A stretch of DNA of 64,000 nucleotides from Deltaproteobacteria bacterium (lineage in GTDB: Bacteria; Desulfobacterota; DSM-4660; Desulfatiglandales; HGW-15). Positions 1,500 to 62,620 of this stretch are shown one piece after another. The stretch is taken from NCBI GenBank assembly GCA_019310485.1, contig JAFDEF010000007.1:4434-68433 (forward strand). Direction: 5' to 3'. The notes beneath the pieces were generated by a model. That model saw only the letters and a program-made list of their open reading frames with translations. It was not told the DNA's origin and ran no database searches. Within the stretch, counting starts at the first letter, position 1. Each line of letters begins with the position of its first letter. The position numbers were made by a program, and so were the translations under genes.

Positions 1500-1985
1500 C
1501 TAGTCCTTATCAGGTGTTCTTCTAAACAGTGCAATGGTTTGCACAATTATGTGGACGAGCATGATAAGAGCAGAGATTGGGAGCACTGCGTACACAAAAG
1601 AAACGGAATAGCCAAGTGCTGCAGTTCGCTGCATCTTCATCATGACCGTCAGTTTGTACCCATAAACCAGCAAAACCACCAACATAAAGATAATGGCAAA
1701 ATTAATGATGATCCTCGCGATTTTTTGTGCACTCTCAGGAAAGCGTGAGAAGAAAATATCCAGCCGGGGGTGTTCGTCGTAGCGCAAGCCAACACTGGCT
1801 CCCAGAAGGCACATCCAGGCAAAAGCAAAAGTTGACATTTCCTCCGACCAGTCAAGGGGTTGATCCAGTACATATCTGAACAACACTTCAAGAAAAACCA
1901 GCACTGAGATGCCGGCTGTAAGCATGCCTGAGGTATGCCTTACAAGTGTGTTAAGGCGTTCACTAAAGTGTTCCAGCCTGCTCAT
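1500..1985 (-). CDS. dctQ: TRAP transporter small permease (DctQ family)
   Basis: 161-aa protein with four predicted TM helices, placed between the DctP and DctM genes. This is the classic TRAP gene order. Confidence 0.85.
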   Translation of the reverse strand: MSRLEHFSERLNTLVRHTSGMLTAGISVLVFLEVLFRYVLDQPLDWSEEMSTFAFAWMCLLGASVGLRYDEHPRLDIFFSRFPESAQKIARIIINFAIIFMLVVLLVYGYKLTVMMKMQRTAALGYSVSFVYAVLPISALIMLVHIIVQTIALFRRTPDKD

Positions 1986-2063
1986 GCGATTCTAACCTCA
2001 CTTAGAAACTGGTCACTTGATCAGGGGACTCTCAAAAAAGGGGCCCCTGAAACAAATGTCTTT

Positions 2064-3065
2064 TCACTTTACAGCCTTGATCTGTCGTATAATGTCCGTG
2101 CCGACTTTCCTGGAATACTTGTCGCTCACGGACTGGGATGCCTTCCTGAAAGCATCAATATCTGCCACGTTAAAAAGCACCTTGTTTTCACGGACAAGTT
2201 TGCCGATTATTCGATAGTCTATATCTTTGGTGATTTTGACGCCCACGGGAATAACAGCTTTTGCTGTATCAAGTATGGCTCGCTGTACGTCAGCGGGGAG
2301 TGAGTCAAATTTTTTCTTGGACATGGTAAGAACAAAAGATTGGTATATATGATTGGTAATTGAAAAATAGGGGGCCACCTCATAATGTTTCATGATTTCA
2401 TAAGAGTATGGTTCAAGACCTGCTGCATCCAGGACGCCCTGCTGAAGAGCAGTGTATACTTCCCCGAAGTTCATGGGCACTGCTTTTGCTCCCCAGGAAT
2501 TGATGACATCAACGTAAAGGGGATTTTGAATGACCCTGTATTTCATTCCCGCCACATCCGAGGGTTTATAAATTGGCCTGTGCCTGTTGTAAATTCCCCG
2601 AAAACCAAGGTTCATACAGGCAAGAACCATTACTCCATGCTTTTCCATTTTCTTATTAATAGACTGGCCTATCGGACCATTCATCACTTTTATGGCGTGG
2701 TCAACGCTTCGATATAGAAACGGGATATCAATATACACCATTTGGGGTTCCCACAGTGCCAGAAGGGAGCTCTGCACAATGGCCATGTCAACTGTGCCGA
2801 TGATTTCGCCTTCTATCGTGTCTTTTTCACCGCCAAGCTGGCCAGAATGGTAAATTTTGATGTTCACCTTGTCGCCAATCTTGTCTTCGAGCATTTGCTT
2901 AAACTTCTTGGAAACAACGGTGTACACAAAAAACGGGGGAGCCTCATTTGCAAGCGACAGCTCTATCTTCTTTGCTCTTGCCTGGGGGGGGTGAACGCCA
3001 ACGGCAAAGGCTACTGAAATCAGGGCTACCGCGCACGACAAAAGAATTCTTCTTGCTTTTTTCAT
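2064..3065 (-). CDS. dctP: TRAP transporter periplasmic solute-binding protein (DctP family)
   Basis: 333 aa with an N-terminal signal peptide (MKKARRILLSCAVALISVAFA...ARA). First gene of the TRAP operon. Confidence 0.9.
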   Translation of the reverse strand: MKKARRILLSCAVALISVAFAVGVHPPQARAKKIELSLANEAPPFFVYTVVSKKFKQMLEDKIGDKVNIKIYHSGQLGGEKDTIEGEIIGTVDMAIVQSSLLALWEPQMVYIDIPFLYRSVDHAIKVMNGPIGQSINKKMEKHGVMVLACMNLGFRGIYNRHRPIYKPSDVAGMKYRVIQNPLYVDVINSWGAKAVPMNFGEVYTALQQGVLDAAGLEPYSYEIMKHYEVAPYFSITNHIYQSFVLTMSKKKFDSLPADVQRAILDTAKAVIPVGVKITKDIDYRIIGKLVRENKVLFNVADIDAFRKASQSVSDKYSRKVGTDIIRQIKAVK

Positions 3066-5409: not shown

Positions 5410-7281
5410 TTATACTCGCCCCTTTTTGCGCCCCAGATAGGCCTGCACAACGTATTCATTGTCGGCAACTTCGTCATATGACCCTTCGGCTATCTTTTTA
5501 CCGTAGTCAAGGGCGATCACTCGGTCTGAGATTGTTCTTACCACGTTAAGCTTGTGTTCGATAATAATAAAAGTGTACCCGTACTTGTCACGAAGATTTC
5601 TTATAAAGCGAGTTATCTCTTCGGTCTCCTTGGGATTCATTCCGGCCGAGGGTTCATCGAGAAGAATCAGGCGAGAGTCAGTGGCAAGGGCTCTGGCTAT
5701 CTCCAGCCGACGCCTGTTGGCGTAAGAAAGGTTGATTGCTTTTTGCTTGTACCTGAAACCTGTAAGCCTGGCACCAAAAAGGCCAAGGTTTTCCTTGGCA
5801 ACCCTTTCGATTCTTTCTTCTTCTTTCAGAAAACCCGGCAACCTGAAAAGTATGCTGAAAAGTCCCGACTTTGTTCTGCAGTGCTGGGCAACCATAGCGT
5901 TTTCGAGCACGGTCATGTTGGTAAAAAGCCTAAGGGTTTGAAAGGTTCTTGCAACCCCTTTTTCTACCACTTTATGGGGTTTTAAACCCGTGATTTCTTT
6001 CCCATCAAAGATTATGTGTCCGCTTGTCGGAGGATATATGCCTGTTATCAGGTTGAAAACAGTGGTTTTGCCAGCCCCATTCGGGCCAATGATGCTCAGG
6101 ATTTCCCCTTCGTACACTTTTAGAGAAAGTCTGTCCACTGCGTGGAGACCGCCAAAGATCATTGTTAGGTCTTTCAGCTCCAGTAACACTCGATCTTTGT
6201 TAAGTTTTCCTTTTTTGAGTGGCTTTACAAAATCGTGGCTTCCGTCTCCGTAAAAAAGTTCTTCTGCTGCCTTAAGGGTCTCCGGTTCCTCGACTTCCTT
6301 TTTCTTGCGCTTGGGCCTGAGGCTTATCTCGCCCAGTATGCCCTGGGGTCTGAGGGCCATCAATACCACCAGCAAAAGCCCGTACCCTATCATCCTGAAA
6401 GCCCCATACTCTCTAAGCGCCTCCGGCAAAATCGAGAGAATAATAGCGGCAAGAATGACGCCCCAGATATTGCCAACCCCCCCCAGAATGAGCATGCAGT
6501 AAACAGTTACCAGTTGAGAGAACCCAAAGTTATTTGGAAAAACACCTCCCTGCCATGATGCAAATACAGCCCCCGCACCTCCGGCGATTGAAGCCCCGAT
6601 TCCAAAGGCAAGAAGTTTCATGTAGGTGGTATTCACGCCCATGGCGTCAGCGGCAAGCTCGTCTTCACGCAAAGCTTCCCAACCCCTGCCCAGCCTGGAA
6701 CGCTTGAGCCTGTAAGAAGCAAGAATTACCAGGAGGGCAAAAAACATGACGAGGTAGTAATATTGAGTGACAGTTCTGAAAGTAAACCCGAATATGTGGG
6801 CAAAGTCCAGGTCAGGGAGGCCATTCGGGCCGCCGGTAATATTAATTGGGCGATCTAAGTTCAAAAGCAGGAGCCGGACGATTTCAGCAAACCCCAGGGT
6901 CACGATGGCCAGATAATCTCCTGATACTCTCAAAGATGTGAACCCCAGACCCCAGCCACACGCTGACGCTGCAAGTGCACAAATCGGAACAACAAGCCAG
7001 AAGGGTAGATGGATATTCCAGTGTCCGGAGCAGAGCAGCGCATAGGTGTATCCGCCTATAGCGTAAAAGGCAACATAGCCAAGGTCAAGAAGCCCCGCGA
7101 AACCCGCAACCACGTTCAAACCAAGAGAAAGCATTATCCAGAGTCCTGCATTCCCGGCAATGCGTATCCAGTAATTATTCGGCATTATCCAGGGAATAAC
7201 TACTACCACAGCGAGTATAAGAACGAGGCTTTGGAGAGGAATATCACCGATTTTTTTTTGGCCTAAGCTTGAAAGTGCCAC
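5410..7281 (-). CDS. Fused LivM-type permease and LivG-type ATPase
   Basis: 623 aa. The N-terminal ~330 aa are polytopic and LivM-like. A Lys/Glu-rich linker follows, then an ATPase with GPNGAGKTT and the signature region LSYANRRRLEIARAL. Confidence 0.85.
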   Translation of the reverse strand: MALSSLGQKKIGDIPLQSLVLILAVVVVIPWIMPNNYWIRIAGNAGLWIMLSLGLNVVAGFAGLLDLGYVAFYAIGGYTYALLCSGHWNIHLPFWLVVPICALAASACGWGLGFTSLRVSGDYLAIVTLGFAEIVRLLLLNLDRPINITGGPNGLPDLDFAHIFGFTFRTVTQYYYLVMFFALLVILASYRLKRSRLGRGWEALREDELAADAMGVNTTYMKLLAFGIGASIAGGAGAVFASWQGGVFPNNFGFSQLVTVYCMLILGGVGNIWGVILAAIILSILPEALREYGAFRMIGYGLLLVVLMALRPQGILGEISLRPKRKKKEVEEPETLKAAEELFYGDGSHDFVKPLKKGKLNKDRVLLELKDLTMIFGGLHAVDRLSLKVYEGEILSIIGPNGAGKTTVFNLITGIYPPTSGHIIFDGKEITGLKPHKVVEKGVARTFQTLRLFTNMTVLENAMVAQHCRTKSGLFSILFRLPGFLKEEERIERVAKENLGLFGARLTGFRYKQKAINLSYANRRRLEIARALATDSRLILLDEPSAGMNPKETEEITRFIRNLRDKYGYTFIIIEHKLNVVRTISDRVIALDYGKKIAEGSYDEVADNEYVVQAYLGRKKGRV

Positions 7282-12875: not shown

Positions 12876-14324
12876 ATGGCAGAGAAAGAATTTTTGGATT
12901 TTTGCTCCTTCCTCTCCGGGGTGAGCCTGGCATCTGTGCCACAAAGTGTCGTAGATCACGCCAAGCTGGTGCTGCTGGACACGCTTGGTGTCGTTATTGC
13001 TGGTTCGCAAAACGCTGAAGTAGACAAAATTGCAAAGCATCTTTGCCTAATTGGCAACCGGGACAGAAGTGCCACATGGCCTGGGAGGCAAGAGCGTTTC
13101 AATCCTTTGGACGCGGCTCTGGTTAGCGGTATTTCGGGTTCAAGCCTTGAATATGAGGAAGGTAACTCCAGGGCCATGGGCCATCCTGCGATTCAGCTCA
13201 TCCCGGGGCTTATGGCTGCTTGCGAATCGGAAAACCTGACAGGGGAAAGGGTGCTGAGGGGTCTTATTGCGGGCTACGAGGCGGGCAGCAGGGTGAGCCG
13301 TGCTTCCTCAATCAGAAAGGGCCTTCATCCGACCGGAACATGGGGTGTAGTGGGATGTGCACTCGCTGTGGCGTGTGCATCTGGAAAAAAGCCCCAAGAT
13401 CTGGTTCAGATTTTAAACATCGCTTCGTCCTTTGCTCTTTCTCCTTATGTGAAAAACTCTTTTGTGGGGAAAAACGTAGCAGCAACGTTTGCAGGAGTTA
13501 CAAACTACCTGGGGTTGCTTGCAAATCTTTTTTTTGACAGTGGCATCCGGGCTGACGAGAGCAGCTTCAAAATGACCTTTTCCAGGTTTGTCTCAGATGA
13601 TTTCGAGCCGGATCTTCTCTATGATAATCTTGGAAAAGAATACGCAATAGCCGAAAATTACTTCAAGCCTTACCCAACATGCCGGTTTACCCATCCTTCA
13701 CTTGACGCCCTGAAAGCTATCTTGGAGAGGGAGCAGGTCAATCCCGAAGATGTTGCCCGCGTTAAGGTCTGGAGCTTCAGGGCAGCAGTTCATACTTCTT
13801 CCAGCCCGCCGTCAAATGCCGAGGCCATGCGTTTCTCAACCCCTTATCTTGTTGCCGTGATGCTGGTTTATGGAAATATCAACCTTGGAATAATGAACTT
13901 CCCCGCCGCAAGCAGCGGGGTATCAATCGGAAACCATCTTAACCGCCCCAAGGGGCGGGGAATCAAACCCTTGTCCGCCTCTGGCGGATTGAAAGACGAA
14001 CTGATCGAGGATCATAAAATAAAGGACCTTGCTGCCAGGGTTGAAATGATTCACTCTCGTGAATACGAAAGAATGCTGCCCAGGCACAATCCTGCCAGGG
14101 TTACCGTTCAGCTCAAGGATGGGCGAGAGTTTACCCATGAAACCCTAAACTGCAGGGGAGATCCTTTAAACCCATTGACAGGAGAAGAAGTATCACAAAA
14201 ATTCCTGTCACTCGCAGGGCCTGTCATAGGAGACAAAAGAGCTGAACAGTTTTTGGAGAAGCTCAAGAATCTTGAGTCAGAGAAGCACATTCAAGAATTA
14301 ACGGCACTGCTGAGGCCTGCTTAG
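12876..14324 (+). CDS. MmgE/PrpD family protein carrying a 32-codon repeat-derived insertion
   Basis: 482 aa with PrpD-like sequence throughout (VLLDTLGVVIAGS, HPTGTWGVVG, KPYPTCRFTHP). Residues NFPAASSGVSIGNHLNRPKGRGIKPLSASGGL are encoded by a family-1 repeat. Confidence 0.85.
   Translation: MAEKEFLDFCSFLSGVSLASVPQSVVDHAKLVLLDTLGVVIAGSQNAEVDKIAKHLCLIGNRDRSATWPGRQERFNPLDAALVSGISGSSLEYEEGNSRAMGHPAIQLIPGLMAACESENLTGERVLRGLIAGYEAGSRVSRASSIRKGLHPTGTWGVVGCALAVACASGKKPQDLVQILNIASSFALSPYVKNSFVGKNVAATFAGVTNYLGLLANLFFDSGIRADESSFKMTFSRFVSDDFEPDLLYDNLGKEYAIAENYFKPYPTCRFTHPSLDALKAILEREQVNPEDVARVKVWSFRAAVHTSSSPPSNAEAMRFSTPYLVAVMLVYGNINLGIMNFPAASSGVSIGNHLNRPKGRGIKPLSASGGLKDELIEDHKIKDLAARVEMIHSREYERMLPRHNPARVTVQLKDGREFTHETLNCRGDPLNPLTGEEVSQKFLSLAGPVIGDKRAEQFLEKLKNLESEKHIQELTALLRPA
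13892..13992 (-). repeat. Family-1 structured repeat, subfamily 1b short form, inside the MmgE/PrpD CDS
   Basis: Near-identical to the copy at 59021-59121 in reverse orientation. Flanked by AATGA and ATTGA. Removing 96 nt leaves an intact frame (..GIM-K-DELIE..). Confidence 0.9.
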
Positions 14325-15103: not shown

Positions 15104-15222
15104 TTAATCCGCCAGAGGCGGATTAATCCGCCAGAGGCGGACGAGGGTTCAATTCCCCGCCCCTCAGGGTGTTAAGAAAATTTCCGATTGATACCCCGTC
15201 CGCTTGCGGCGGGGTAGTTAAT
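15104..15222 (+). repeat. Family-1 structured repeat, subfamily 1a long form
   Basis: 119 bp, bounded by TTAAT at both ends. About 95% identical by hand count to 62454-62572. Carries a tandem CCGCCAGAGGCGG hairpin module plus two more GC hairpins. Confidence 0.9.
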
Positions 15223-15320
15223 TTACGTATGTGCCATGGATTTCACTGGTATTAACGGGGCTTTTGCAATAAGAAACAGATGATTGCAAGTGCAAACGTA
15301 AAAAATTGAGGAGAGCGACC

Positions 15321-40111: not shown

Positions 40112-40746
40112 ATCCCACTCAGTTTTTCCGAAGCTATGAATTTCTGGTGGACAGGGCTGATGCTTTCTTCGCGAAAATGGAGAAAGGCTACGGCTCGTGT
40201 ATCAATTGCAAGAGGCACTGCTCTGATTGTTGTCAGGCCGTATTCGGGTTGTTCCTGATCGAGTCGGCCTACATAAAATCTCGTTTCGACCAGCTTGACC
40301 CTGATACAAGGAAACAGGCCATTTTGAGGTGCAATGAGGCTGACAGGGGTCTGAAAAGACTCGAGACAAAGCTGGAGATCAATAATGGCGACCCGGAAGC
40401 CCAGTCCTCAATTATGGCAAAAGAAAGAATCCGTTGTCCCCTCTTGGACGATAACGAGGACTGTATCCTTTACACGAACCGTCCCATAACGTGCCGCGTA
40501 TATGGTGCCCCTACAAGAATCCATGGCAAAGTCAGGGCTTGCAGCAGGTCAGGGTTCAAGGCAGGCGAACGGTATCCGGTATTTGACCTTGACGGCACTT
40601 ACAGGGAACTTTACTTGCTCTCAAGAGAGTTCCTGAGTACTGCGGGAGACGCTGATCCTGAAAAAGCCTCTTTGCTTATCTCTGTTTCAAAAGCAATAAG
40701 AACGCCACTAGAGGAGCTCGTATACGAGATCTTCCGACGAGGTTAA
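40108..40746 (+). CDS. YkgJ-family Cys-cluster protein (CxxCxxCC putative Fe/Zn-binding domain)
   Basis: CINCKRHCSDCC near the N-terminus and a later CPLL...C...C. Its start overlaps the TPR gene stop (ATGA). Confidence 0.7.
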   Translation: MNPTQFFRSYEFLVDRADAFFAKMEKGYGSCINCKRHCSDCCQAVFGLFLIESAYIKSRFDQLDPDTRKQAILRCNEADRGLKRLETKLEINNGDPEAQSSIMAKERIRCPLLDDNEDCILYTNRPITCRVYGAPTRIHGKVRACSRSGFKAGERYPVFDLDGTYRELYLLSREFLSTAGDADPEKASLLISVSKAIRTPLEELVYEIFRRG

Positions 40747-40865
40747 ATGAACTTCCCCGCCGCAAGCAGCGGGGTATCAATCGGAAACCATCTTAACCGC
40801 CCCAAGGGGCGGGGAATCAAAGCCTTGTCCGCCAGAGGCGGATTAATCCGCCTCTGGCGGATTGC
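40746..40865 (-). repeat. Family-1 structured repeat, subfamily 1b long form
   Basis: About 120 bp, inverted relative to 59021-59121, with one extra 19-nt CCGCC...GGCGG module. It begins at the last base of the ykgJ-like stop codon. Confidence 0.9.
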
Positions 40866-43662: not shown

Positions 43663-43781
43663 TTAATCCGCCAGGGGCGGACGAGCCCGCCAGAGGCGGA
43701 CAAGGGTTCAATTCCCCGCCCCTTGGGGCGTTAAGAAAATTTCCGATTGATACCCCGTCCGCTTGCAGCGGGGTAGTTAAT
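43663..43781 (+). repeat. Family-1 structured repeat, subfamily 1a
   Basis: 119 bp bounded by TTAAT at both ends. Lies in the convergent gap between the ATP-grasp gene and yjbQ. Confidence 0.9.
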
Positions 43782-43806
43782 CCTGGCGGCTCGAGCGGTG
43801 CTGGAC

Positions 43807-44273: not shown

Positions 44274-44384
44274 TCAATCCGCCAGAGGCGGATTAATCCG
44301 CCTCTGGCGGACAAGGGTTTGATTCCCCGCCCCTTGGGGCGGTTAAGATGGTTTCCGATTGATACCCCGCTGCTTGCGGCGGGG
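44274..44384 (+). repeat. Family-1 structured repeat, subfamily 1b long form with divergent 3' end
   Basis: Starts with TCAAT and carries the double first module. The usual AAGTTCAAT end is missing. It sits between yjbQ and the upstream hypothetical gene. Confidence 0.85.
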
Positions 44385-57692: not shown

Positions 57693-58888
57693 AGGGCAAG
57701 AATGTCGTTGTAGGTGTGACAGGGGGAATTGCCGCTTACAAGGCGGCGGAGCTTGTGCGCCTGCTTGTCAAAGCAGGCGCACAAACAAGGGTTGCCATGA
57801 CTGCTCATGCCACAAAGTTTGTAACCCCTCTCACCTTTGAAGTTCTCTCAGAAAACAGAGTAGTATGGGATATGTGGGACGGGCAAGAAAGTCCCATGTC
57901 TCATATCACCATGAGTCAGGAGGCCGACCTTATCATAATTGCCCCCGCAACAGCGAACTTCATCGGAAAAATTGCACACGGTATTGCGGATGATTTTCTT
58001 TCTACCTCAATTGTTGCCGCTACAGGAAAGATGCTTGTGTGTCCCTCTATGAATAGCCGCATGCTCTCGAACCCTGCAGTGCAGGAGAACATCACTCTGC
58101 TGAGAAAAAGGGGATACACTGTTATGGCTCCACAAGAGGGTGAGCTTGCATGCGGGGAAAGAGGTGTGGGCAGGCTTCCTGAACCGGAACAGATCCTGGA
58201 GCAGGCCAGGATTTTGCTCTCAGAACATGATCTTTCAGGAATGAAAGTACTCGTTACCGCTGGTGCTACGGTAGAACCGATTGACCCTGTGAGGTACATT
58301 ACAAACAGGTCAAGTGGCAAAATGGGTTACGCTTTGGCTAGAGCCGCTGCTCTCAGGGGTGCGGAAGTAATGCTTGTGAGCGGTCCCACCTCCCTTAACC
58401 CACCCCGCAATGTTAAAGTTTTCAGAGTGAAGACAGCCGCAGAGATGAGAGATGCGGTTCTTGGCCACCACGCGGAATGTGATGTTGTTATCAAGGCAGC
58501 CGCTGTCCTTGATTACAAGCCACGGAGACAATCGAAGACCAAGATAAAAAAGCTGGAGGAAATCCAGTCTCTTGAATTGGTACGAAATCCTGATATCCTT
58601 GCAGAGCTCGGGAGACGCAGAAGCGGAAAGAGGTCTCTGTTGGTCGGATTTGCGGCGGAGACCCACGATCTTATGAGCAATGCGAGGGAAAAGCTTCGAA
58701 AGAAAAACCTGGACATGATCATAGCTAATGACGTTTCCAGAGAAGATGCAGGGTTTGAATCGGACACTAATGCAGTTAAAATTATTCACAGGGATGGCCG
58801 CGTGGAAGAGCTTCCACTCATGACAAAGGAAGACCTTGCAGATCGTATTCTGGACAGAGTCAAGAAACTATGGAAAGAAACAGCCTAG
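57689..58888 (+). CDS. coaBC: Bifunctional phosphopantothenoylcysteine decarboxylase / phosphopantothenate-cysteine ligase
   Basis: 399 aa with a flavoprotein N-terminus (VVGVTGGIAAYK, PAMN-like CPSMN) and a CoaB C-terminal domain. Confidence 0.95.
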   Translation: MKGKNVVVGVTGGIAAYKAAELVRLLVKAGAQTRVAMTAHATKFVTPLTFEVLSENRVVWDMWDGQESPMSHITMSQEADLIIIAPATANFIGKIAHGIADDFLSTSIVAATGKMLVCPSMNSRMLSNPAVQENITLLRKRGYTVMAPQEGELACGERGVGRLPEPEQILEQARILLSEHDLSGMKVLVTAGATVEPIDPVRYITNRSSGKMGYALARAAALRGAEVMLVSGPTSLNPPRNVKVFRVKTAAEMRDAVLGHHAECDVVIKAAAVLDYKPRRQSKTKIKKLEEIQSLELVRNPDILAELGRRRSGKRSLLVGFAAETHDLMSNAREKLRKKNLDMIIANDVSREDAGFESDTNAVKIIHRDGRVEELPLMTKEDLADRILDRVKKLWKETA

Positions 58889-59691
58889 AGCCGGTTGAGG
58901 AATTGAGGCAAGTGGTCAGTCACTTGAAAAAACTAATGACCTATGACCGGGACATGGGGCTTGAGCCCCCCATACTGTCTTCTTCAACCCTGGAGTATCT
59001 CCGGAAAGAAGCCTCAAGTTTCAATCCGCCAGAGGCGGACGAGGGTTTGATTCCCCGCCCCTTGGGGCGGTTAAGATGGTTTCCGACTGATACCCCGCTG
59101 CTCGCGGCGGGGAAGTTCAATTCCCTGGAGGATCTTAGAGATTTCATTGGTGAATGCAAGAGATGCAAGCTCTGGCGCGGGAGGACAAATCTGGTGTTTG
59201 GTGAGGGCTCACATAAGGCTCGATTGGTCTTTGTGGGTGAAGGACCCGGAAGGGAAGAAGACATAGCAGGTAGGCCCTTTGTTGGCGAAGCGGGCAAACT
59301 CTTGACCAGAATAATAGAAAACGGAATGGGGCTGAAACGAAATGAAGTTTACATTTGTAATGTTGTAAAATGCCGCCCTCCACGCAACCGGGACCCCGAA
59401 AAAGATGAAATTGAGGCCTGCTTACCCTTTCTGGAGCAGCAGCTTAGAATAATCAGCCCCGAGGTCATCTGCACTCTAGGCAGGGTGTCGGCTCAGGCCT
59501 TGCTCGGGGGGGAGTTCAAGATCACGCGCGAGAGAGGGAAGTGGTTTTCTTTTATGGATATCCCTCTGATGCCCACATACCATCCGGCATATCTTTTGCG
59601 AAACCCATCGGCAAAACGCGATGTATGGGAGGATGCCAAAAAAATTATGAGACACCTGGGGCTGGAGGTCAGGGAGAATGCTCAGGCGTAG
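58870..59691 (+). CDS. Family-4 uracil-DNA glycosylase carrying a 32-codon repeat-derived insertion
   Basis: CKRCKL..R.NLVFGEG, GEGPGREEDIAGRPFVG and HPAYLLR are family-4 UDG motifs. The N-terminal linker contains NPPEADEGLIPRPLGRLRWFPTDTPLLAAGKF, encoded by a family-1 repeat. Confidence 0.85.
   Translation: MERNSLEPVEELRQVVSHLKKLMTYDRDMGLEPPILSSSTLEYLRKEASSFNPPEADEGLIPRPLGRLRWFPTDTPLLAAGKFNSLEDLRDFIGECKRCKLWRGRTNLVFGEGSHKARLVFVGEGPGREEDIAGRPFVGEAGKLLTRIIENGMGLKRNEVYICNVVKCRPPRNRDPEKDEIEACLPFLEQQLRIISPEVICTLGRVSAQALLGGEFKITRERGKWFSFMDIPLMPTYHPAYLLRNPSAKRDVWEDAKKIMRHLGLEVRENAQA
59021..59121 (+). repeat. Family-1 structured repeat, subfamily 1b short form, inside the UDG CDS
   Basis: TCAAT at both ends. 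Deleting 96 nt restores gcc tca agt ttc aat tcc ctg gag (ASSFNSLE) in frame. Confidence 0.9.
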
Positions 59692-62453: not shown

Positions 62454-62572
62454 TTAATCCGCCAGAGGCGGATTAATCCGCCAGGGGCGGACGAGGGTTC
62501 AATTCCCCGCTCCTTGGGGCGTTAAGAAAATTTCCGATTGACACCCCGTCCGCTTGCGGCGGGGTAGTTAAT
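62454..62572 (+). repeat. Family-1 structured repeat, subfamily 1a long form
   Basis: 119 bp bounded by TTAAT at both ends. Lies between the terminator and ispD. Confidence 0.9.
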
Positions 62573-62620
62573 CATGGACCATGGGTCATATTTGTTTGAG
62601 GGGTTACAGGAAAGAGATTC

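Follow-up and report, generated by a model that had tools for sequence, protein, structure and literature searches.

How can a gene for a DNA-repair enzyme hold a copy of a repeated, hairpin-rich element and still be open from one end to the other? The question is raised by a stretch of 64,000 nucleotides from the deltaproteobacterial contig JAFDEF010000007.1 (the window, in what follows), in which the gene for a family-4 uracil-DNA glycosylase (UDG) contains 96 nucleotides that recur, with variations, elsewhere in the same DNA. An earlier examination of the letters and their open reading frames (the sequence-only reading) had placed a sense-oriented copy of the repeat, encoding NPPEADEGLIPRPLGRLRWFPTDTPLLAAGKF, in the open reading frame at 58870-59691. 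Both the frame and the peptide (residues 52-83) are as it claimed, and the insertion is genuine: a repeated element lies in frame and without stops in an otherwise intact family-4 UDG gene. The argument rests on the following features.

58870..59691, + strand: family-4 UDG gene, 273 amino acids (open reading frame list, Pfam, orthologs, PDB matches)
59020..59025, + strand: TTCAAT hexamer (codons F51 N52), the apparent host target directly 5' of the element (conserved span of 102 nt against 96 nt added)
59026..59121, + strand: 96-nt short-form copy of the repeat, sense, encoding P53-N84, 32 amino acids (BLASTN, ortholog alignment)

The host gene belongs to family 4 both by similarity of sequence and fold and by its conserved motifs. 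Pfam PF03167 (UDG, 5e-39) spans amino acids 110-256 of the window protein, and family-4 UDGs in PDB match it at 1e-52 to 1e-56 (4ZBX at 7e-56; 1UI0 at 2e-52, over residues 84-263). Aligned with 13 orthologs of 63-78% identity (alignment A2), the window protein retains all invariant cysteine and histidine columns. These include C96, C99, C168, and C184, the conserved cysteine ligands of the 4Fe-4S cluster. The GE(G/A)PG and HPA/HPS motifs are likewise invariant in the alignment and kept in the window protein, as G123-E124-x-P126-G127 and H238-P239-A240. The gene begins within an overlap with the stop of coaBC and ends within an overlap with the start of nfeD.

Compared with the same 13 orthologs, as the sequence-only reading had suggested it should be, the window protein carries exactly 32 residues that they lack, and the sequence on either side of these is conserved and co-linear. 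That reading had also observed that removing 96 nt restores ...ASSFNSLE..., and the result of the deletion is exactly co-linear with orthologs of 233-239 amino acids. The insert lies, as it had said, just N-terminal of the CKRCKL core, at a distance of 12 residues. Its remark that TCAAT occurs at both ends of the element can be extended by a base, for the six nucleotides TTCAAT flank each side, so the boundaries of the insert may be shifted by as much as 6 nt. Of the 120 best homologs listed, one alone, the exact match (P0001), has 273 residues; most of the others have 233-239 and none has more than 249. The closest insert-free ortholog among them (P0002) lies in synteny identical to that of the window (purD, SPOR, coaBC, UDG, nfeD, band-7, an open reading frame of 130 amino acids, ispD), and its locus, 8.7 kb in length and called L096 here, has zero copies of the element. 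The ancestral state of the gene can be reconstructed exactly from this syntenic relative.

Metagenome assemblers do mis-join at repeats, and one junction found elsewhere (locus L039, described below) is suspicious on that account, so it is fair to ask whether the insertion is a chimera induced by the repeat or a collapsed repeat. The idea is hardly credible and may be considered effectively refuted. Both flanks of the insert are parts of one gene in one frame, co-linear with orthologs, and the identical 273-residue protein is found on five contigs from at least four samples. Three JGI samples (3300033148, 3300021503, 3300021467) and ENA ERZ27248172 gave the same protein and the same neighbourhood in independent assemblies, which excludes an artefact.

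What kind of place in the protein has received the element? Judged by sequence, the insert sits at the junction between an N-terminal extension peculiar to the lineage and the canonical family-4 catalytic domain. Alignments with 4ZBX, 1UI0, and 1L9G/1VK2 begin at residue 84-87 of the query, at residue 2-4 of the chain, and end at about residue 262. An AlphaFold2 (AF2) model built with the ortholog alignment has pLDDT below 50 at residues 47-80, between flanking helices at 38-49 and 86-94, so that the insert is modelled as an unstructured loop of low confidence. Two orthologs, P0111 and P0120, have an unrelated insertion of about 10 amino acids at the same position (columns ~73-82 of A2). The co-linear flanks, the modelled loop, and the unrelated indel at the same position together point to a linker that tolerates insertions and deletions. 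The inserted segment, 32 residues rich in proline, glycine, alanine, and arginine, keeps the frame open because the short form is 3x32 nt in length and the copy lies in the sole sense phase of the element that is free of stops.

A reading frame that is open need not be one that is used from its first codon. Perhaps the N-terminal 51 codons have been lost from the enzyme, with translation beginning in the element or past it, or perhaps what is seen is a young pseudogene. The element contains two TTG codons in frame (L60 and L65), solved family-4 UDGs work without the N-terminal extension, and disruptive copies are found elsewhere, for example in the cyclase gene of locus L029. Nonetheless, such a broken or misannotated gene is unlikely. 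The whole frame of 273 codons is open, all catalytic and Fe-S columns are conserved, and there is no ATG, GTG, or TTG between the element and CKRCKL. The sequence-only reading had named a start codon downstream of the element as one way it might prove wrong, but the N-terminal 48 amino acids are as much like those of orthologs as is the core, with E11, G30, P34, Y43, and L44 invariant and kept, from which it follows that the start is to be placed upstream of the element. The overlap between the coaBC stop and the ATG at 58870 is exactly that of the insert-free ortholog. The conserved residues suggest that the insert-bearing enzyme would remain functional, its insert a tolerated passenger.

What, then, is the element? 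Its outstanding characteristic is three GC-rich hairpins, which in the UDG copy fall as follows.

59026..59038, + strand: hairpin 1, CCGCC-AGA-GGCGG (95.8% of cells paired, 57 copies)
59055..59070, + strand: hairpin 2, CCCCGCCCC-TT-GGGGCGG (95.9% of cells paired, 57 copies)
59071..59092, + strand: most conserved unpaired core, TTAAGATGGTTTCCGACTGATA (invariant or near-invariant columns in alignment A4)
59093..59112, + strand: hairpin 3, CCCCGCTGC-TC-GCGGCGGGG (94.5% of cells paired, 57 copies)
59113..59121, + strand: right terminus, AAGTTCAAT, family consensus WAGTTMATT (boundary profile)

With three hairpins as the model, 95.3% of the cells in 57 distinct copies are paired, compared with 37-60% when the partners are slid, and its covariation score was matched by only 1 of 500 shuffles. 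One pair of hairpin 3 is UG in 29 copies, CG in 18, AU in 3, and UA in 2. The explicit model took the place of a consensus computed by RNAalifold, which was poor on the same 57 copies (-7 kcal/mol). A long-range pairing seen in minimum free energy (MFE) folds of single sequences, TTCCCCGCC with GGCGGGGAA, is internal to the element, covaries no more than shuffles do, and was rejected.

As RNA, the element folds with an MFE of -49 kcal/mol (z = -2.6), and long forms reach z = -5.7. So strong a structure might suggest an intervening sequence, that is, an intron, an intein, or a bypass element, whose removal would leave a mature enzyme without the 32 residues. This is very improbable. Rfam gave no match to an intron or to anything else at the gathering threshold over the whole window, and only matches at chance level in permissive mode on two copies. 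Thirty-two amino acids are far below the size of an intein, the junction residues are not intein-like, and the element is mostly intergenic, in both orientations, with one copy that merely shifts the frame of a gene. A separate observation concerns the motif GGTTCAATTCC (15140-15160 in the window, and in subfamily B generally, the subfamilies being defined below), which resembles the T-loop of tRNA. A tRNA-like identity for it was considered and rejected: the matches to mascRNA, Tymo_tRNA-like, and the T-arm of tmRNA had E of 0.2-0.4, that is, chance, and ARAGORN found no tRNA.

By BLASTN the window has seven copies of the repeat, about 100 nt each and 83-95% identical: 59021-59121 (+), 13887-13994 (-), 40745-40844 (-), 44295-44384 (+), 15125-15223 (+), 43687-43792 (+), and 62475-62569 (+). 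A 45-nt core pattern had 2 matches at no more than 3 mismatches, against 0 in 100 shuffles. Five of the copies are intergenic.

15104..15223, + strand: subfamily B, one extra 19-nt hairpin module
40746..40864, - strand: subfamily A, extra inverted module
43663..43782, + strand: subfamily B, extra module
44274..44384, + strand: subfamily A, extra inverted module, 3'-truncated
62457..62575, + strand: subfamily B, upstream of ispD; the site is empty in the syntenic relative L096

The two subfamilies are distinguished as A (...TTGATT...GTTAAGATGG...) and B (...TTCAATT...GTTAAGAAAA...). Subfamily A has GAAG; GTAG occurs 3' of hairpin 3 and only in subfamily B. Long forms arise from extra 19-nt hairpin modules (CCGCCAGAGGCGG plus 6 nt), one to three at the 5' end in the long forms of the window. 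The long form was put at about 115 nt by the sequence-only reading, and 96+19 gives that number. The extra module is inverted in two of the window's copies (loop TCT versus AGA), so that the two modules together make a single perfect hairpin of about 15 bp. Both number and orientation of modules vary among copies.

Looking beyond the window, with the unpaired core TTAAGATGGTTTCCGACTGATA as the pattern for scanning collections, the exact degenerate pattern was found in GTDB genomes at 3 loci, all in one metagenome-assembled genome (MAG), Desulfobacteraceae bacterium HyVt-17, and in metagenome contigs at 80 or more loci (from 88 matching stretches), in few projects. An nhmmer profile gave 136 hits, which reduce to about 75 distinct sites, in the 80 metagenome loci listed and the one GTDB MAG, after repeat masking and clustering by flanks. 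The 61 full-length copies comprise 35 short ones (96 nt), 19 with a single extra module, and 7 with two or more. Intergenic copies lie between genes in every arrangement (tandem-same, 9; tandem-opposite, 10; divergent, 9; convergent, 8), and this lack of bias with respect to orientation or intergenic type fits a selfish mobile repeat better than a regulatory RNA acting in cis. Copies occur at 7 per 64 kb, about one every 9 kb, compared to none in the 8.7 kb of L096. This density, the empty locus, and the presence of copies in just one GTDB MAG suggest an expansion that is recent and restricted to a lineage.

Read from the other strand, the terminus begins ATGAAC..., with the ATG in the sole open antisense frame (for example, from 13988 of the window downward). 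Gene callers start or extend open reading frames in intergenic copies, which accounts for spurious N-terminal extensions of the type MNFPAASSG... (P0243, P0247, P0254). The ATG could occasionally be a real start codon. A search of a set of 5.8 billion proteins with a concatenate of the peptides was rejected as a census: it returned 14 proteins only and missed UDG and the other in-frame protein of the window themselves, and most of those 14 were open reading frames called from a start inside the element.

Where does the element end and the host begin? Boundary profiles show conservation from TTYAAT, just before the first CCGCC, to GGWAGTTMAT(T), and TTYAAT precedes 44-47 of 49 copies. The conserved span is therefore 6+85+11 = 102 nt, but only 96 nt have been added to UDG and to the second gene with an in-frame copy, the one for an MmgE/PrpD-family protein (PrpD hereafter). 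The excess of six conserved bases is best accounted for as host sequence. The host hexamer reads TTC AAT (F51 N52) in UDG; the one in PrpD, reverse-complemented, is (A)TTGAA (Leu-Lys). At the empty site in L096 that corresponds to the copy at 62475, TTTTAGT is already present where the window has TTTTAAT and then the element. The double TCAAT of UDG is on this account the host target plus a right end one base off the usual GTTCATT. Variants of the right terminus track subfamily (p=6e-6).

The ends have neither of the marks of a classical MITE (miniature inverted-repeat transposable element). Neither of the termini, CCGCCAGAGG... and ...GGGGWAGTTMAT, is the reverse complement of the other, so that there is no terminal inverted repeat (TIR). 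Just 9 of 38 copies have the same 5-mer on the left as on the right, and the copy in PrpD allows a duplication of no more than 1 nt, so that there is no general target-site duplication (TSD).

UDG is not the only gene that has received the element, and a second one lies in the window itself.

13893..13988, - strand: 96-nt copy, the second in frame, antisense to the gene, encoding M340-G371, MNFPAASSGVSIGNHLNRPKGRGIKPLSASGG (Pfam, 12 homologs, AF2)

The host gene is the MmgE/PrpD-family open reading frame at 12876-14324, whose C-terminal Pfam domain is split by the insert. Exactly 32 extra residues, MNFPAASSGVSIGNHLNRPKGRGIKPLSASGG, lie between the conserved I335 and L385, and they are absent from 12 homologs. 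In that region of the AF2 model only 340-372 has pLDDT below 50. In the models of both proteins low pLDDT is confined to the insert and the flanks are confident, by which the insert is predicted to be a surface loop or linker that the fold can accommodate. Both copies embedded in coding sequence in the window are therefore of the 96-nt short form and in opposite orientations, just as the sequence-only reading had it.

Four further cases come from fragments outside the window. A protein of 396 amino acids in L057 contains, in frame, an antisense copy that has decayed (1091-1185; EMNYPAASSGVSIGNHLNRPKGG...), with TPR repeats upstream of the copy and an SLH domain downstream, all in one frame; the copy is probably an older tolerated insertion. 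In L029 (5922-6040), the 115-nt form (96+19) splits a cyclase gene (PF04199) and shifts its frame. Without the element, there is a single match to PF04199, 1-142 of 142, across the junction; with it, the flanking frames differ by 1 and the upstream frame meets a stop. The downstream half is called by gene callers as a protein of 183 amino acids (P0245) that starts in or upstream of the element. The remaining two cases are ambiguous. In L023 (1770-1871; open reading frame 1651-2997, minus strand), an antisense copy lies in the C-terminal Big_7 domain of a lipoprotein-like protein of 448 amino acids. The frame is open through the element, and the Big_7 match ends at the element, going only from 1-45 to 1-46 of 70 when the 32 residues are deleted. 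In L039, the short-form copy at 6788-6889 has on one side a truncated branched-chain amino-acid permease (2-149 of 269 in the profile) and on the other a truncated ABC ATPase (36-136 of 137, without the N-terminal Walker A part), the result either of a deletion by recombination between two copies or of a chimeric assembly at the repeat.

In all, about 75 sites include 3 verified in-frame genic copies (UDG, PrpD, L057), 1 that is disruptive (L029), and 2 that are ambiguous (L023, L039). Genic copies thus make up about 4-6 of the sites, or about 5-8%. The coding density of bacteria is typically well above 80%. A genic share so far below the coding density implies that insertions into genes are strongly removed or avoided.

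Have those that remain been selected for an open frame? The sequence-only reading thought so, seeing in the pattern the selective survival of copies that preserve the frame. Subfamily A has one open frame per strand and only short forms preserve the frame, from which a fraction of about 0.19 (0.57 x 1/3) of random genic insertions should leave the gene intact. By my own binomial estimate, 3 in frame of 4 has p of about 0.02, and 3 of 6 has p of about 0.09. The trend favours selective survival, but the cases are few and the copy in L029 shifts the frame, so the idea is only weakly supported. The same reading took the openness of the element on both strands as a sign of such selection. The openness is real but carries no signal: 85% of dinucleotide-preserving shuffles are likewise open. 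In 5000 shuffles of the 96-nt element (64% GC), the most common number of open frames was three; the real element has two. Composition offers a simpler ground for tolerance. GC-rich stems, read from either strand, give proline, glycine, alanine, arginine, and serine, hence flexible loops. Proline, glycine, alanine, and serine make up 38% of the sense peptide and 53% of the antisense peptide.

I propose that a non-autonomous, hairpin-rich mobile repeat has inserted into a variable linker of the UDG gene, and consider this account very probable. The element consists of a 96-nt core, three GC-rich stem-loops around a conserved unpaired centre, with no TIR and no TSD. It would have inserted directly 3' of the host's TTCAAT, between the N-terminal extension and the catalytic domain. 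Most insertions into genes would be removed by selection, leaving copies that are overwhelmingly intergenic. Those that survive may do so because the GC-rich stems encode loop-forming residues on either strand, so that the element would be tolerated in both orientations, PrpD being the antisense reading.

How such a repeat might move is suggested by its ends. Insertion sequences (IS) of the IS200/IS605 group lack TIRs and TSDs, insert 3' of a target of 4-5 nt, have hairpins at their ends, and give rise to palindrome-associated transposable elements (PATEs), derivatives that consist of the ends only (PMC7290912). Repetitive extragenic palindromes (REPs) are thought to be moved in a related way by REP-associated tyrosine transposases (RAYTs), which are related to those of IS200/IS605 (PMC3733652). 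At one end of the element stands hairpin 1 and at the other hairpin 3, each about 95% paired. I suggest, tentatively and as a possibility that may well prove mistaken, that the element is moved in trans, as single-stranded DNA, by a transposase of the IS200/IS605 type (Y1/HUH, possibly RAYT-like) that recognizes the hairpins and TTYAAT.

Several observations weigh against these proposals, or at least against holding them too firmly. No transposase, whether Y1, RAYT, or other, was found beside any copy in the window or any partial copy, and there was no cognate tnpA/tnpB, RAYT, or full-length parent IS in about 750 kb (the 64-kb window plus about 690 kb of fragments). At 6 nt the apparent target exceeds the usual IS200/IS605 length of 4-5 nt. 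The variant of the left hexamer tracks subfamily (p=0.0015), so the hexamer could be in part intrinsic to the element rather than purely a target. Covariation in the hairpins is modest, since the copies are 83% identical. The census, by its exact 28-nt pattern, favours young copies, and its counts are minimum figures, drawn from fragments rather than a whole genome. Finally, translation through the element and the retention of glycosylase activity are deduced from the intact frame and the conserved residues. Two candidate sources of a transposase were considered and rejected. Matches to the right half of the element alone might have been ends of a full-length IS, but they are 5'-truncated copies amid ordinary genes. 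The neighbours of copies in the window, including an open reading frame of 131 amino acids between two copies and another of 372 next to a copy, are not transposases but UPF0047, DUF6955, HEAT-repeat, LarA-like, and HTH-cupin proteins.

An alternative view of the insert is that it is no passenger, that the 32-residue loop contributes to the function or regulation of UDG, by binding a partner or as a flexible tether from the N-terminal extension to the catalytic domain, for example, and is kept by positive or purifying selection. The insert is fixed in all five contigs, from at least four samples, with no empty allele among the best homologs listed, and added tether length might be of consequence at the domain junction where it sits. 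Two changes from the subfamily consensus, K to E and I to T, make the peptide of the UDG copy more hydrophilic. The same E/T variant, however, is found in the copy at L039, which makes it a variant of a sub-lineage rather than a host-specific adjustment. The UDG copy is young, about 4% diverged from consensus; the insert is in no ortholog and AF2 finds no structure in it; and proteins unrelated to one another tolerate the element, whichever way round it lies. Exaptation is a quite improbable explanation of the insert, which leaves the tolerated mobile repeat as the preferred one.

What is the case good for? Judged from the sequence, it is a clean and well-bounded instance of a selfish repeat that adds 32 residues to a DNA-repair enzyme of an essential type, apparently without breaking it. 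UDG, the antisense insertion in PrpD, and the frame-shifted cyclase make up a matched set of tolerated and non-tolerated insertions of one element, useful in learning which sites in proteins accept insertions and in carrying the paradigm of the Rickettsia palindromic elements (RPEs) beyond obligate intracellular bacteria. The case also bears on annotation: an ATG is on offer at the antisense end, where gene callers begin or lengthen open reading frames. A bolder picture can be drawn, speculative and, taken whole, rather unlikely. In it the element would belong to an undescribed family of modular hairpin repeats, active at present in free-living Desulfobacteraceae of hydrothermal sediment and moving as single strands in the manner of IS200/IS605 or RAYT systems, with an unusually long target of 6 nt (TTYAAT) specific to subfamily. 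Its stems, encoding loops on both strands, would be an ongoing source of loops in core enzymes of DNA repair and central metabolism, a free-living counterpart of RPEs, and the UDG insert might be nearing exaptation.

How does the element compare to systems already known? Classical MITEs resemble it as small non-autonomous repeats with internal open reading frames and in-frame fusions to host genes, but they have TIRs and TSDs and it has neither. Fusions in frame through MITEs inside genes have been called "not unusual", the RPEs of Rickettsia being the extreme case (PMC10969869); ERIC, Coxiella QMITE1, and the MITEs of Anabaena are further examples (PMC10969869, PMC5896051). PATEs (PMC7290912) are closer. 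They too are non-autonomous, without TIR or TSD, with hairpins near both ends, and a short conserved sequence directly 5' of the left end, to which a motif at the right end is related. They differ in their target (4-5 nt, against the apparent 6 nt of TTYAAT), in that the element described here has hairpin modules amplified in tandem, and in having a cognate tnpA/tnpB or full-length parent IS, none of which was found in the roughly 750 kb fetched.

REPs, along with the GTAG- and CGTC-tagged palindromic repeats found within genes (Di Nocera et al. 2013, PMC3733652), are abundant GC-rich stem-loops, mostly extragenic and without TIR or TSD, as is the element. Some lie inside genes of known proteins, many of them concerned with replication and repair, and add 20-30 amino acids (PMC3733652). 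Unlike the element, a 96-nt composite of three hairpins, a REP is a single palindrome of 20-40 bp with a GTAG or CGTC tag at one end (PMC3733652), and the RAYT that might be expected was found neither beside the window's copies nor beside the partial copies in the 64 kb and the further 690 kb or so of fragments.

The nearest likeness is to RPE-1 and its relatives (Ogata et al. 2000), palindromic repeats in frame in genes of Rickettsia, so far as they are portrayed in PMC10969869 and PMC3733652. In those accounts, RPEs are short (about 100-150 bp), palindromic, non-autonomous repeats found between and inside unrelated protein-coding genes, and they lie in frame, with a conserved peptide predicted to be compatible with the host's fold and with DNA-repair genes among the hosts. 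The element resembles them on each count. It is a multi-copy palindromic repeat, intergenic and also in unrelated genes (UDG, PrpD, L057, L029), and in UDG and PrpD it keeps the frame and is absent from orthologs (13 and 12, respectively), with L029 as the counter-example. There are differences as well. No relationship in sequence was detected in Rfam or other libraries, RPEs being compared by description. The host, of a sulfate-reducer lineage, is an uncultured, free-living member of the Desulfobacteraceae from sediment metagenomes, not a reduced intracellular genome. About 5-8% of sampled copies are genic, against nearly half in some RPE families as those accounts give it. The element has three separate hairpins and variable 19-nt modules, and it codes on both of its strands. 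CGTC, which is the tag of RPE-4/6, adjoins hairpin 1 on the minus strand in only about half of the copies.

The in-frame insertion of a palindromic repeat is thus a kind of event already known, and the UDG gene calls for no new biological principle. In the manner of its working the element would resemble an RPE, or a REP inside a gene; it matches no curated family and is best filed as a new family of its own.

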